Made by a program: the position numbers and the translations under genes | The notes under the pieces: generated by a model | What the model was told of the DNA's origin: nothing | Databases searched by the model: none | What the model saw: the letters and a program-made list of their open reading frames with translations, nothing else | Origin: Labilibaculum filiforme | Lineage (GTDB): Bacteria; Bacteroidota; Bacteroidia; Bacteroidales; Marinifilaceae | Reading direction: 5' to 3' | DNA length: 24,000 nt | Assembly: GCF_002843315.1 (NCBI RefSeq) | Contig: NZ_MVDD01000006.1 | Coordinates: 1 to 24,000 of the forward strand | Shown here: in pieces, positions 526 through 7,530 of the stretch | Layout of the letters: the number at the start of each line of letters is the position of its first letter | How positions within the stretch are numbered: position 1 is the stretch's first letter

Positions 526-2838
526 CTATTCTTTAAAGTTTTTTAGGTTATACTTCTTTACTCTTTTCTTTATTGAGGGCTTACCACCATCAGTTATTTC
601 AGCAATATAATCAACTATACTCCTAGAGTTCAATTCACCTTCTAACCTGTTGGATTTAATTTCTATTTTTTGGTCGTTATTAATACACAAAACAATATTT
701 TGAGCATCACCTAGCATCGGAATTGTGGCATTGTGAGAAACTAAAATAATCTGTTTCTTGGATTTAATTTTCTTAATTGCGTTTACTAGACCTTCATTGA
801 TATAATTTGTTGCTAAGTTGTCTTCTGGTTGGTCAATAATAATCGGAGCTATATCACCTTCAAAACCTAATATTATATCTAAAAGTACAGATGTTCTCCA
901 ACCCGCACTTAGGTCTTCAAATTTCTTTCCATTCAAGGTAATTATTTTGTAGTTTCTTTTATTTAAAGACTCAAAATCTGTATAAATCCGTTTCTCAAAA
1001 TCATCATAGCCTTTAACTTTAGGACTTTGTCCTTTATATTTTGATTTAAATAAAGATTCAGGACTAATATTATCAAAGGAAAGTATTTTGTCACCTGTCT
1101 TAAGTAGTTTGTTAATTACCTCAAGTAGTTTTGTTTTATTTAGTTCAAAATCGTTTTCAATGAAGAGTTTATGACCCATTGATTCCACAATCTCAGAATC
1201 ACACTTTATCGAATACTTGGATACTTTTTCTAGTATTTTATAAAATTTAGAATAGTTTTGAGAATAAATCTTTACACACAAAATGAGTTTTTCAAAGTTT
1301 TGTCTTTTTGTTTGTTCCTCTGTATTAGCAGACTTTAAATCCATGTCATAACGTTCTTTTTCTGAATCAATGACCTTTTTTATATCTTCTGCAAAACTTG
1401 ATGAATCAAAAGCCTTTACAATTTCCTTCTTAAGCTCTATTACAAGCTTCTCATCGTGGCTAACAAAAGGATTAGATTTCAACTTAGCATCAATTTCGTC
1501 TAAGAACTCATTGTGTTCTTTAAAATCATGAAGAGAATATTTAATTTTTCTTTTTTCCTCTTCAGTAGGTCGGAATTTATCTATAACGTTCTTTTGAATA
1601 TCCTTCCTTGTAATTAAACGCGTTAAATATGGGATGTGACTCAATTCTTCAACTTGCTCTTCCAATATTTTCACACATCCAATTAAATCTGTTAAGTCAG
1701 TTTTTAAACTTAAAAGTCCTTTATTTACTGTTTGCTTAATCGTTTCATCACCAGGAAAAACCTTTCTAACAATCTCAATATTATCAATTTTGTCTTCTGT
1801 CGCATCACTAACCACCTGCATTATATAATTTTGAGATAAATAATGAGGTTTCACCATGGAAGGGTTATTTACATGTAGCTGTTCCACACCAAAAGGAATA
1901 TACTTACTATCAGAAAAATCACCAATTATTTTATTATACAATGAATCAACAAAAAGAGTTTTCCCTGAAGATGAGCCTCCAATAACAACATTAAGACCTG
2001 ACGTTAATTCTGCGTCAATATTTATTTTTTCATTATCTAACTTTACCGATTTAATATGTTCAGACCAAATTGAAGGTCTATCATGTGAGTAAACTAATCT
2101 TGAAGATTCAGACAACGATAACCTTAACCCACTAAACGTAGGTAAAGCAAACATCCAAGTTGGTATAAATGGTTCTGCTTTTTTTGCTTTTGCATTAGGA
2201 TAACTATTAACACTATAATTATCCGTACAAGTTACCAAGTTTACAAATTCATTAATCCCGAGCCGTTTAAAGTAATCTTGTGTTATTTCAAGCTTCGTAT
2301 TACCTCTTGCGGTAAAACCGTCAAACTGATTGTAGTAAATACTTCGCTCAATAGAATTATCAAATTTCACACCTTTTGGAATAGATTTAGGAAATGTTGA
2401 ATGTGATTGACCCCCATGAGGTAAAATAAGAAAATCATAGCTGTCAAAAGTTTTTATAACTTCCTCCAAGGTTGGAATCTTATCGGCAGTACTAACCATT
2501 TTAATAGGATACAATATGTCAAGTTTTAGATTTAATTCATCAATAACATCTTCTGTAATTTCATCGAGATTAAAATAAATATGACAATGATATGGAGGGC
2601 ATTCTGAGTAATTCCTAATGTGCAACTCAACTCCTAAAAGCAAATTCATCACCTTATTCTTTGCCTCTAGATAAGCCCTTTTGTTAATGATATTATGGTC
2701 TGTAAGTGATATTAGATAAGCTGAATCTTTTGAGACACTTTTAATTTTAGTAATCAATGTTTCAATATCATAATTGTCACTCAGGTTATTCGAATCTACT
2801 GAGGTGTGAATATGAAGGTCTAAATATATTGCTTCCAT
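526..2838 (-). CDS. PHP-domain phosphoesterase fused to an ABC/SMC-type (OLD/AAA_15-like) ATPase; Ppl-like candidate defence protein
   Basis: N-terminal PHP-type metal motifs: DLHIHT (res 7-12), LTDHN (45-49), GVELH (69-73), LPHGG (139-143). Walker A is GGSSSGKT (res 287-294, nt 1957-1980). A charged helical insertion of about 350 aa follows. Then come the signature-like LSAGWR (643-648), Walker B IIIDQPEDNL (666-675, nt 814-843) and LVSHN. Confidence 0.8.
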   Translation of the reverse strand: MEAIYLDLHIHTSVDSNNLSDNYDIETLITKIKSVSKDSAYLISLTDHNIINKRAYLEAKNKVMNLLLGVELHIRNYSECPPYHCHIYFNLDEITEDVIDELNLKLDILYPIKMVSTADKIPTLEEVIKTFDSYDFLILPHGGQSHSTFPKSIPKGVKFDNSIERSIYYNQFDGFTARGNTKLEITQDYFKRLGINEFVNLVTCTDNYSVNSYPNAKAKKAEPFIPTWMFALPTFSGLRLSLSESSRLVYSHDRPSIWSEHIKSVKLDNEKINIDAELTSGLNVVIGGSSSGKTLFVDSLYNKIIGDFSDSKYIPFGVEQLHVNNPSMVKPHYLSQNYIMQVVSDATEDKIDNIEIVRKVFPGDETIKQTVNKGLLSLKTDLTDLIGCVKILEEQVEELSHIPYLTRLITRKDIQKNVIDKFRPTEEEKRKIKYSLHDFKEHNEFLDEIDAKLKSNPFVSHDEKLVIELKKEIVKAFDSSSFAEDIKKVIDSEKERYDMDLKSANTEEQTKRQNFEKLILCVKIYSQNYSKFYKILEKVSKYSIKCDSEIVESMGHKLFIENDFELNKTKLLEVINKLLKTGDKILSFDNISPESLFKSKYKGQSPKVKGYDDFEKRIYTDFESLNKRNYKIITLNGKKFEDLSAGWRTSVLLDIILGFEGDIAPIIIDQPEDNLATNYINEGLVNAIKKIKSKKQIILVSHNATIPMLGDAQNIVLCINNDQKIEIKSNRLEGELNSRSIVDYIAEITDGGKPSIKKRVKKYNLKNFKE

Positions 2839-2877
2839 TCTTTCTATTTAAATAGTTCGTATTGCTCGTTTCGTATG

Positions 2878-2960
2878 TGCCCTAACTAGTTAGTAAGTGC
2901 TATGGGCTTTATTTCGTTTATATTTTTTTAAAAAGTGTATTTACCGACCCATATAGGGCA
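2878..2960. repeat. Imperfect palindromic element R (TGCCCTAAC..CTATGGGC ... GACCCATATAGGGCA) just upstream of the cassette
   Basis: TGCCCTA (2878-2884) pairs with TAGGGCA (2954-2960) and TATGGG (2901-2906) with CCCATA (2948-2953). The long arm carries a ~16-nt bulge and there is an AT-rich centre. Confidence 0.4.
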
Positions 2961-3069
2961 GTAATGAACACTTATTATATTCAATGAACGAATCTACAAA
3001 ACAATAATATCCAATCAAAAGAATCAGGATGATTATTTCACATAGGTAGTATTACTATAAATATAGAGG

Positions 3070-3715
3070 ATCACATTTCGTCGAGAGATTATTGGAGTGC
3101 CAAAAATGCCTTTACATTTCGTCGAGAGCTTATTCGAGCAACAAAAACGGCTTTACATTTCGTCGAGAGCTTATTCGAGCAACAAAAACGGCTTTACATT
3201 TCGTCGAGAGCTTATTCGAGCGCCAAAAACGCCTTTACATATTGTCGAGAGTTAATTTGAGCGTCAAAAATGGCATTACATTTCGTCGAGAGCTTATTGG
3301 AGTGCCAAAAATGCCTTTACATTTCGTCGAGAGCTTATTCGAGCAACAAAAACGGCTTTACATATTGTCGAGAGATCATTTTTACGGTCAAATAGGCCTT
3401 TACATATTGTCGAGAGCTTATTCGAGCGCCAAAAAGTTAATTTTCAAGTCGCGAGAGGTCATTCTAGCACCAAAAATGCCTTTACATATTGTCGAGAGAC
3501 TATTTTAGTGCCAAAAACAGCTTTACACATTGTCGAGAGATCATTTTTACGGTCAAATAGGCCTTTACAAATTATTGGGCGATTGTTCGAGAATCGATAT
3601 GACCATTTTCTATTGAGGGAAGCTTATTTTAGGCTGAAAAATGTCTTTGCATATTGTCGAGAGGTCATTTGGATGCCAAAAACAGCTTTACATTTTATCG
3701 GGAGGCATTTTCTAA
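3070..3715. repeat. Tandem direct-repeat array, about 16 units of ~41 bp
   Basis: Unit starts are at 3070, 3111, 3152, 3193, 3234, 3275, 3316, 3357, 3399, 3437, 3481, 3522, 3564, 3605, 3646 and 3687. The conserved core is TTTACATWTYGTCGAGAG. Units 3111, 3152 and 3316 are identical. The 3' units are degenerate. Confidence 0.95.
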
Positions 3716-3922
3716 TATAATCTATTTCCGCAGATATTTATTTATTTTACACACTAAGCATAAAACTAAAACTGACACATTTATTAATAAACTCAAGCAT
3801 CACACACTATAATCTTATTATCTGCACAATACACGAATACAAATTCTAACTAACTACCTATTGTATTTTACAGTAAATTCCGAACTATTTTATTTATCAT
3901 CAAAATTAAATTGTAAAAAACA

Positions 3923-4663
3923 ATGGAACAAATTTTAAGTGATTACACAAGCAAACAGGTAGAAAATATTGCCGAAAACATTTTATTTGAGTTTGCAAAA
4001 ACCGATTGGAGCGCCGATCAATACCTAAGCGAAATTAGCTCGAGACTGTTAAAAAGCCACGGCATTCTTAAAAATTCAATTGGGAAGTTACGCGCTAGTG
4101 ATTTTACCGAAGAACTATCGAAAAAAGATGCCATTTTCGATAGAGATATTATCTGTTTTAAAAAGTTTGTGGATGCAAACAGGTACATGAGAGATGAGAA
4201 CAAAGTGGAGGCTGCGACTAAAATTTGGAAGCTTATTGATGCTCACAATCTTAATCTTTATCGCTTAAGTTACGAAGAGCAAACTTCGTCGGCCACCTCG
4301 CTATTTGCAGAATTAGACAGGCAGGATAACAAGCTTTTAATTGAAGCACTGATTGGAGCAAGTGAGGCTTTAATCTTGGCAAAAAATTCGAACGATGCTT
4401 TAATGAGCACTTATCGAGAAAGTAATGAGGCAAAAGCGACCAAAGAAGATCAAATTGCAGCATCGCTTCAGCGAAAGCAGGTTCGCGATATCATTAATTC
4501 AGACTTATTGCCCTATTTGGAGGTGATGATACGGGTAAATCCAGCTACTTACAAAGGAATTTACCAATCAATAATCAAGTATATCGAAGCGGTAAATACG
4601 AAAGTTCGCTCTAGATCGACAAAAAATGAATCGGAAACTACACTTGAGCTAGAACAAAACTAG
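3923..4663 (+). CDS. Hypothetical protein (246 aa), predicted mostly helical, family not recognised
   Basis: Clean ATG ORF followed by a strong terminator. It has no signal peptide, TM segment or catalytic motif that I can recognise. Confidence 0.6.
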   Translation: MEQILSDYTSKQVENIAENILFEFAKTDWSADQYLSEISSRLLKSHGILKNSIGKLRASDFTEELSKKDAIFDRDIICFKKFVDANRYMRDENKVEAATKIWKLIDAHNLNLYRLSYEEQTSSATSLFAELDRQDNKLLIEALIGASEALILAKNSNDALMSTYRESNEAKATKEDQIAASLQRKQVRDIINSDLLPYLEVMIRVNPATYKGIYQSIIKYIEAVNTKVRSRSTKNESETTLELEQN

Positions 4664-6760: not shown

Positions 6761-7435
6761 TTAATTATTTATGATTGTAGTCGTTGTCAGCATCATTACA
6801 ATTACCACCATTAATGCTTCGTGAATTTCTTTCACCACATTTCCCACTTCAGAACTTAACTGTGCATTTTCAACGATTGTCTTTATTTTCTTTTCATATT
6901 TCTTGGCTCGCTCCTTTCCAAACACTTCTGTATTTAAAGAGCACATGTCTATTAAGCTAATCAGCATACTTTCCTTCATCTCCAAACTACGATCGTTTAA
7001 AAGAATCTCATTTAAGCGTTTTCTTAATTCGTTTTCGGGTTTTGCATTTAGGGTTGGGTACTTATCGTTTGAAAATACCCAAAGAATCTTTTCTTCTTTT
7101 TTGCTTAAGATACCATCAGCAATCAGTTTCTTTAGTGTTTCCTCTTTAATATAGGCTTCTTTGTTTCCGATTATCTCCACCCAAGCTTGCAGACCTCTTT
7201 TCTTTTTTGAGTTTCGTATTTCCTCCATAAAATGATCGAGCAGCATATCATTACAATTCTTATGCGATTTCACCTCTATATTTTTGTCTCGAATCTCAAT
7301 TTTTTCCTGCAAAGAAAGTTCTAAAATGATAGCTCCAGCCATAGCGTATCCAAACGAAAACGAATCGGCAACAAAACTTCCCTTTTCATCGTCGAGTGCG
7401 AGAAGACATAATTGATCCACTAAATTTAAATTCAT
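6761..7435 (-). CDS. GPP34/GOLPH3-family protein
   Basis: LLALDDEKGSF near the N-terminus is typical of GPP34. I place the start at ATG 7435 (MNLNLVDQL..) rather than the ORF-track start at 7501. Confidence 0.65.
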   Translation of the reverse strand: MNLNLVDQLCLLALDDEKGSFVADSFSFGYAMAGAIILELSLQEKIEIRDKNIEVKSHKNCNDMLLDHFMEEIRNSKKKRGLQAWVEIIGNKEAYIKEETLKKLIADGILSKKEEKILWVFSNDKYPTLNAKPENELRKRLNEILLNDRSLEMKESMLISLIDMCSLNTEVFGKERAKKYEKKIKTIVENAQLSSEVGNVVKEIHEALMVVIVMMLTTTTIINN

Positions 7436-7530
7436 TGTATTTCCAGTTTTAAGATTAGACTCAATTTGCGAAAAATAACAAAAAAAATCCCAATAGAACA
7501 ATTAGCTCTACTGGGATTATTTTATAAGAT

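Follow-up and report, generated by a model that had tools for sequence, protein, structure and literature searches.

The array and its locus

The DNA analysed here (the window) is a 24-kb stretch of the Labilibaculum filiforme chromosome, in which a tandem array of 41-bp repeats fills much of the intergenic region between a minus-strand gene for a 770-aa PHP and AAA-ATPase protein and a plus-strand gene for a 246-aa protein of the DUF6261 family, a placement that an earlier reading of the sequence alone had already given. The array is real and non-coding, and its repeat family has stayed upstream of DUF6261 genes across genera of marine Bacteroidota (Marinifilaceae), with position, orientation and the 41-bp period kept across lineages. 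The array is tentatively read, at rather less than an even chance, as phased protein-binding or architectural DNA tied to a DUF6261 module. The features of the locus are the following.

526..2838, minus strand: PHP and AAA-ATPase gene (TrlF-family/Ppl-like), 770 aa, a lineage-specific neighbour outside the module
2923..2975, no strand: hairpin separating the leader from the divergent gene; its apex is CCCATATAGGG, and T7 and A5 runs border it
2985..3050, plus strand: conserved leader before the first unit, holding the 14-mer TACAAAACAATAAT at 2995-3008
3070..3563, plus strand: 12 well-preserved array units, 41-42 bp long, each with the core TTTACA-N5/6-TCGAGAG followed first by a T-rich and next by a CAAAA patch
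3564..3727, plus strand: decaying, gene-proximal end of the array, 4 units
3860..3875, plus strand: ATTGTATTTTACAGTA, 16/16 identical in the tails (array to gene) of the window and of a Labilibaculum sp. locus (L025)
3923..4663, plus strand: DUF6261 gene, 246 aa, acidic and all-helical product, the sole gene that stays beside the array across lineages

By slicing the sequence by hand, 16 head-to-tail units were delimited at 3070-3727; two are 42 bp long and the other 14 are 41 bp. About 16 units with a 41-bp period had been claimed in the sequence-only reading, which is borne out by hand slicing, the period also by the programs used; the range of 38-44 bp that it gave for single units is corrected to 41-42 bp. 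Tandem Repeats Finder reported a period of 41 over 3073-3539 (11.4 copies, 79% matches, score 475), with super-periods of 123 and 165 bp by which the array reaches 3692, and a repeat search placed 13 copies in register at a spacing of 41/41/.../42. The autocorrelation of the array peaks at lags of 41, 82 and 123 (0.65, 0.60 and 0.56, background 0.26), nhmmer recovered 14 units between 3073 and 3715, and no second copy of the array was found when the window was scanned with the unit.

Units are 63-100% identical to the reference copy. The finer details reported earlier were also checked: one and the same sequence recurs in the units at 3111, 3152 and 3316, those at 3357 and 3522 have the right half ATCATTTTTACGGTCAAATAGGCC in common, and those at 3070 and 3275 share another right half with 1 difference. 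Decay toward the gene at 3923 was confirmed for the units at 3564, 3605 and 3687, which are degenerate, but it is not monotonic, as the unit at 3646 is well preserved. A CRISPR (clustered regularly interspaced short palindromic repeats) array was rejected, in agreement with the earlier argument, on the 41-bp period and on variable halves that are related to one another and recur; CRISPR arrays have identical repeats and unique spacers at a period of about 55-75 bp.

The DUF6261 gene as conserved partner, and arrays at other loci

Loci in other genomes were reached via contigs encoding DUF6261 homologues, one of which (L052) is too short to judge. In 8 of the 10 judgeable lineages, an array with a 41-bp period lies 110-300 bp upstream of the DUF6261 homologue on the same strand, and a lag of 41 is the top autocorrelation peak in every tabulated DUF6261 locus. 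These loci are listed below with the identity of their DUF6261 protein to that of the window.

Window, Labilibaculum filiforme: 100% (to the L. filiforme protein), array upstream
L025, Labilibaculum sp.: 71%, array upstream
L026 (the same as L010), Marinifilum fragile: 59%, array upstream
L048, metagenome: 59%, contig begins inside the array
L046, metagenome: 46%, array upstream
L047, metagenome: 46%, array upstream
L053, metagenome: 39%, degenerate array
L056, metagenome: 38%, weak array signal

Of the two genes that the sequence-only reading had proposed as possible companions of the array, the 246-aa DUF6261 gene is therefore the one retained, M. fragile included. The PHP-ATPase was rejected as array partner because it is missing at every other array locus, L025 and L026 included, and a 75-aa protein encoded next to it was rejected on the same ground. 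A lack of the array at homologous loci, which had been named as evidence against the element, is not the case, as homologous loci keep it. No array was found upstream of the DUF6261 homologues of L050 and L055 (both 42% identity). Tandem DUF6261 paralogues without any array occur in L050 (672-1427 and 1697-2140) and in L051. Downstream of the DUF6261 gene, synteny (HD, GPP34, an 80-aa gene and an ABC ATPase) is common to the window and M. fragile, and the locus is therefore considered chromosomal and old.

The DUF6261 protein was modelled by AlphaFold from a 100-sequence alignment as a nine-helix, all-alpha structure with a pLDDT (predicted local distance difference test score) of 96.5. Foldseek comparison with PDB and viral structures gave no match with E <0.05, a profile search of PDB sequences gave no match, and no PADLOC match was obtained for the protein. 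The family comprises about 480 clusters at 50% identity.

An exact-motif scan of a collection with one genome per species, which did not include the L. filiforme genome, returned true arrays only in Marinifilum (L002, L010, L011, L012 and L020); the other 19 matches were single, roughly as many as an 18-mer is estimated to give at random in 596 Gb. From metagenomes came L029/L041, L035 and L036, and viral contigs, likewise scanned, yielded no array. M. fragile carries at least two array loci, and two further locus types are found in metagenomes (L029 and L035). A second array, seen in five genomes or contigs of Marinifilum, separates an OmpA/TPR gene, into which it points convergently, from an operon composed of a variable gene and NifS. 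The leader-adjacent gene differs by species and encodes a 172-aa protein, a DUF2971 protein (M. fragile), a thioredoxin-like protein or a cation-efflux protein. In Marinifilum, the arrays are built from a 123-bp super-repeat of three unit types (a, b and c) that is common to the DUF6261 and OmpA loci, and their first and last units are each of a characteristic type of their own. Scattering of the 41-bp unit over unrelated loci, which the sequence-only reading had associated with a generic satellite, is thus borne out in part in Marinifilum, where the unit occurs at other intergenic sites as well.

Several side observations were made at these loci. The slot between leader and NifS (L011 6745-7263, L020 1956-3098, L002 2137-2844 and L012 1680-2729) is occupied by an unrelated gene in each species, with start codons about 15-160 nt from the leader, although identity in the flanking OmpA-like protein reaches 96-98%. 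The slot resembles a gene-replacement hotspot. A roughly 100-nt element, AAAGCCCTCAGC(T)AAAGCAGAGGACAAATGGAAATGG...CTTGGGTTTTAACCCAAGG with a T-run after it, is found twice around the L002 array, which it truncates (about 1790-1900 and about 1400-1520, in minus-strand orientation), and once between leader and array in L011 (about 7400-7500). This element could be a small mobile element, or a small RNA gene with a terminator. In L025, an inverted partial unit after the last unit (1160-1195) forms a palindrome, GAGAGCTCATTCTAAGC/GCTTAGAATAAGCTCTC, whose 17-bp arms have one mismatch, and no T-run comes after it. A distant DUF6261 family member is encoded in L036 (13573-14310), 11 kb from the OmpA-locus array. 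The pattern TTACA-N5-TCGAGAG is also present in metagenomic tandem arrays, namely L031/L045 (41-bp, GC-rich), L030, L038, L044 (21-bp) and L037 (42-bp), near none of which a DUF6261 gene was found; the GC-rich and the 21-bp arrays were treated as unrelated to the window family. The occurrence of the pattern in otherwise unrelated arrays could be a chance enrichment by the search pattern or could indicate a more widespread motif.

Where the upstream flank was present, a leader of about 60 nt with TACAAAACAATAAT was found to be common to most arrays of the Labilibaculum/Marinifilum type, at DUF6261, OmpA and L029 loci. It was not found at L035, nor ahead of the arrays in the distant loci L046 and L053. 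Two M. fragile assemblies, independent of each other, end precisely at TACAAAACAATAAT, and the motif is therefore read as repeated in the genome. Both the core of the unit and the leader are better conserved than the intergenic DNA around them.

The hairpin next to the leader has folding z-scores of -3.2 in the window and -7.3 in L053, and its counterparts (L025 755-800 and L053 2313-2357) have the apex CC(C)ATATAGG(G) with A and T runs alongside. The stem in L053 is altered on both sides yet still pairs, so that the changes are regarded as compensatory. The hairpin resembles either a palindromic operator or a bidirectional terminator or insulator. As a universal feature of the arrays it was rejected, since only Labilibaculum and L053 have it and the Marinifilum loci do not. 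Between the array and the DUF6261 gene, ATTGTATTTTACAGTA is the only stretch conserved with Labilibaculum sp.; it may be a promoter element of that gene.

On the other side, homology with the Labilibaculum sp. locus starts at window position 2902, just outside the PHP-ATPase gene. The 770-aa protein has an AAA ATPase; its TrlF-family match (NCBIfam, 178 bits against a cut-off of 350) and its match to the Ppl anti-phage protein, which falls on the C-terminus, are partial and below the cut-offs. No PHP domain was matched in Pfam or NCBIfam, and the PHP assignment of the N-terminal region is that of the sequence-only reading. The gene is followed by an ORF (open reading frame) for a very acidic 75-aa protein (isoelectric point 4.2), both on the minus strand at 296-2838, and the two genes are probably a defence-type insertion specific to L. 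filiforme. The remaining genes of the window are ordinary chromosomal genes (HD, GPP34, ABC transporters, a Crp-type regulator, an aminotransferase and a DEAD helicase).

Helical phasing of the unit, and tests for RNA and coding signals

The per-position information content of the unit was obtained from an alignment of 66 distinct units from ten arrays. Four conserved patches were found, TTACA at positions 2-6, TCGAGAG at 12-18, a T-tract at 23-25 with a G at 28, and CAAA at 32-35. The strongest Fourier component of this conservation is the 4th harmonic, 10.25 bp, with a power of 93 versus 47 for the next component (the fundamental) and with maxima at unit positions 4, 14.3, 24.5 and 34.8; a 3-nt periodicity was not detected in unit conservation. 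The 10.25-bp harmonic ranks first or second in each of six array groups analysed singly, and its P value is <1e-4 under simple permutation and about 0.01-0.02 under nulls that keep the run and block structure. Patches placed once per helical turn are expected if one face of B-DNA is contacted along the array. No RNA or coding model predicts conserved patches once per helical turn.

In a dinucleotide wedge model, whose curvature estimate is approximate, five of the six arrays fall within the most curved 1-5% of the 124-bp segments of their own loci. Both the harmonic and the curvature are suggestive, not decisive. Phased bending by an A-tract recurring every four helical turns or so, a possibility raised in the sequence-only reading, is thus supported by the 10.25-bp harmonic together with the predicted curvature, and the 41-bp unit and this harmonic identify the array as direct repeats phased with the helix.

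Searches for a structured RNA were negative. Rfam gave no match at the gathering threshold nor at E up to 10, and, pseudoknots aside, RNAalifold gave no consensus pairs and an energy of 0 on both strands for 1-, 2- and 3-unit alignments. Mutual information revealed only a weak pairing of unit positions 30 and 40 in an inconsistent register, and an RNA hairpin within the unit was rejected on this result and the RNAalifold null. Shuffled sequences fold at least as well as the window array (z of +0.5 on the plus strand and +2.5 on the minus strand); one Marinifilum array has a z of -2.5 on the plus strand, via pairing of T-tract and A-tract. A terminator between array and gene was not found in window 2700-4100. 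Tandem promoters were rejected, as no TAnnTTTG box (the canonical Bacteroidetes -7 element) is present on the array strand in eight loci. The distance from TTTG to TACATTTC was judged by eye to be about 15 nt; the spacing in Bacteroidetes promoters is usually about 19-21. Readings of the unit as a sigma-54 promoter or one of the extracytoplasmic function type were likewise rejected by eye, the spacing being wrong or the motif unconserved between unit types.

As previously stated, all three forward frames of the consensus unit are free of stop codons, a property that a coding repeat would explain. Since 41 is not divisible by 3, the three frames would be read in turn to give a 41-aa (123-nt) repeat, which would also account for the 123-bp super-period present in several arrays. 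Forward-strand stop trinucleotides are indeed depleted relative to shuffles (for example, 13 observed versus 33-44 expected, and 0 versus 8-16), and those on the reverse strand occur as expected. The depletion, 2.5- to 10-fold and on the plus strand of the array only, is seen in every lineage, including the most divergent, L046 and L047. It is a property of the inherited consensus, and the tests found no selection for an open frame in the arrays. Against a coding repeat, substitutions between orthologous arrays are spread over the codon phases as 16/14/13, without codon periodicity, and stop-creating variants are not significantly avoided (odds ratio 0.71, P = 0.06). In addition, a unit in L020 has a 1-nt deletion, the tails are not conserved in any frame, and the three frames of the window array contain 2, 4 and 7 stops. 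The 138-aa ORF of the window has no homologue among 5.8 billion proteins; this ORF and a 70-aa ORF, dismissed as fake in the sequence-only reading, are both products of the repeat. The coding reading is effectively refuted and is regarded as essentially excluded.

Possible functions and relation to known repeat arrays

A possible mechanism is proposed for the array as cis-acting DNA, the reading that is favoured, if tentatively. One unit would span four helical turns and present its four conserved patches on the same helix face. The module would be ordered as hairpin, leader, 41-bp array and DUF6261 gene and may be ancient in Marinifilaceae-like Bacteroidota, with copies of leader and array possibly seeded at other intergenic sites in Marinifilum. 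We infer protein binding, the identity of the binder and the regulatory outcome as follows. A protein oligomer or filament could bind cooperatively along one face of the curved array, the candidate binder being DUF6261 itself or another factor. The nucleoprotein structure may then set the activity of the flanking promoters, that of DUF6261 on one side and that of a variable, often defence-type gene on the leader side. The array is taken to be a defined element rather than the outcome of random slippage because the leader and the first and last unit types are conserved, and the search for RNA structure (RNAalifold, z-scores and Rfam) and for a coding signal, which found neither, supports a function as DNA. 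The favoured reading also draws on the linkage of the array with DUF6261 over divergent lineages, on the 10.25-bp harmonic and on the predicted curvature.

Several points weigh against this interpretation. The constant 41 bp is no proof of function, because unequal crossing-over keeps a period without selection. The 10.25-bp harmonic was picked after the profile had been viewed and reaches only P of about 0.01-0.02 under realistic nulls, and the six array groups share ancestry and hence are not independent. The L025 array is the exception among six in not being predicted to be curved. DUF6261 is the only linked candidate binder, no other candidate protein being linked to the array, and it is acidic (isoelectric point about 5), with no helix-turn-helix or recognisable DNA-binding domain and no known-fold match. 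Finally, transcription of the array may well occur.

Transcription would be central if the array acts as a repeat RNA, either as a long 5' leader of the DUF6261 messenger RNA or as a separate non-coding RNA. This RNA, itself unstructured, would be a multivalent platform or sponge to which an RNA-binding protein, perhaps DUF6261, would bind, or it would be excised into ToxI-like units. The orientation relative to DUF6261, fixed in all lineages, and the strictly kept unit length are consistent with such an RNA, as is the unusually unstructured nature of both strands (z +0.5 and +2.5), which is expected of a single-strand binding platform; the terminator-like hairpin on the leader side in Labilibaculum and L053 and a geometry like that of type III toxin-antitoxin loci point the same way. 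However, neither a consensus structure or covariation nor an Rfam family was found, the window has no terminator between array and gene, the plus strand upstream yielded no canonical Bacteroidetes -7 box, the units decay and are 20-35% different from one another, and the 10.25-bp periodicity has no RNA rationale. Moreover, DUF6261 is not a ToxN-like nuclease, some DUF6261 genes lack an array, and the Marinifilum OmpA-locus arrays aim into the 3' end of a convergent gene. A repeat RNA is considered a less likely but serious alternative. The resemblance to type III toxin-antitoxin arrays that had been suggested from the sequence is not supported, and membership in that class was rejected. Type III loci (ToxI/ToxN, CptIN, TenpIN) share with the array direct repeats of constant unit length upstream of a gene on the same strand. 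In contrast, DUF6261 is all-helical and not ToxN/AbiQ-like, no terminator or conserved RNA fold is present, 16 divergent units, 65-100% alike, compare with 2-5.5 near-identical ones, and array and DUF6261 gene each also occur without the other.

Alternatively, the array could be a selfish or neutral dispersed minisatellite, a leader with tandem repeats homogenised by unequal recombination, whose effects on promoters or curvature would be by-products. The closest counterpart is BrickBuilt, a minisatellite/MITE (miniature inverted-repeat transposable element) of Porphyromonas gingivalis (Klein et al. 2015, PMC4596501). Both elements belong to Bacteroidota, have imperfect tandem repeats without spacers in which the latter half of the unit is more variable, adjoin a conserved leader, are always intergenic, vary in copy number and, judging from the at least two array loci of M. 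fragile, occupy several loci per genome. This published precedent (PMC4596501) favours a minisatellite, together with the recurrence of the unit, mostly with its leader, in at least four intergenic locus types that are unrelated (DUF6261, OmpA/NifS, L029 and L035), a copy number ranging from 4 to 16, assemblies that break at the leader, adjacency to hypervariable gene slots and stop-creating variants that are not avoided. The a-b-c super-repeat shared between Marinifilum loci implies recent copying or gene conversion. Dispersal, copy-number variation and the constant period, which unequal crossing-over keeps without selection, would all be explained. Nevertheless, the array has held its place ahead of DUF6261 over a divergence of the protein to 38-39% identity, a persistence that is hard to square with neutrality because of the bacterial deletion bias, unless the array is selected. 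Core and leader are also better conserved than adjacent intergenic DNA, copies per genome are few as far as visible, and neither terminal inverted repeats nor a tail common to the locus types were found, on which grounds the array is not demonstrably a MITE and that reading was dropped. BrickBuilt further differs in its 23-nt unit of unrelated sequence and in being far more numerous, and one copy of the 41-bp array is anciently fixed upstream of the single family DUF6261 across genera. A neutral minisatellite is likewise considered less likely than the favoured reading but a serious alternative, on a par with the repeat RNA.

For the favoured reading as phased protein-binding DNA, the nearest comparison is with plasmid centromere and iteron arrays (F sopC with 12 x 43 bp, parC and iterons), which the sequence-only reading had also named. 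These arrays likewise consist of long direct repeats with a unit of about a whole number of turns (41 bp, about four) and with conserved patches on one helix face, and the adjacent gene could encode the binding protein. Membership in this class was rejected for plasmid and phage elements alike; as a mechanism, phased protein-binding DNA is still the idea with the most support. The 41-bp array is chromosomal, with synteny from Labilibaculum to Marinifilum, has no plasmid or phage matches, and is without ParA, ParB or Rep nearby, no Par or Rep being found among the Pfam families of the neighbouring genes. Its units are also much more divergent, and the neighbouring protein has no recognisable DNA-binding fold.

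A bolder form of this idea, which is put forward as a long shot, would make the array and DUF6261 a two-part nucleoprotein system of Marinifilaceae-like Bacteroidota, with DUF6261 assembling on the repeat lattice as an organiser, silencer or insulator. One DUF6261 protomer or dimer would be accommodated per four DNA turns or per 41-nt RNA unit, the extra Marinifilum arrays would be further assembly sites, and the system would act beside hypervariable, defence-type gene slots.

No description of the 41-bp element or of a DUF6261 function was found in the searchable literature, and BrickBuilt is the only analogue. The array is akin to known kinds of element, the bacterial intergenic minisatellite and the phased repeat array, and its distinctive feature is the deep, orientation-fixed link to DUF6261. 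If it is only a minisatellite, it would call for caution in annotation (fake ORFs and assembly breaks) and might provide a marker for strain typing. The arrays beside species-variable slots, such as that of the PHP-ATPase here and of DUF2971 in M. fragile, may mark or regulate hotspots of variable genes. If the array is a protein-binding lattice, it would offer the first functional handle on DUF6261, a family without a known role. It would also be a case of a long repeat array in phase with the helix on a chromosome, not a plasmid, in Bacteroidota, a phylum about whose cis-regulatory and nucleoid-organising elements little is known. Its interest would grow substantially if DUF6261 or another protein assembles on the lattice.

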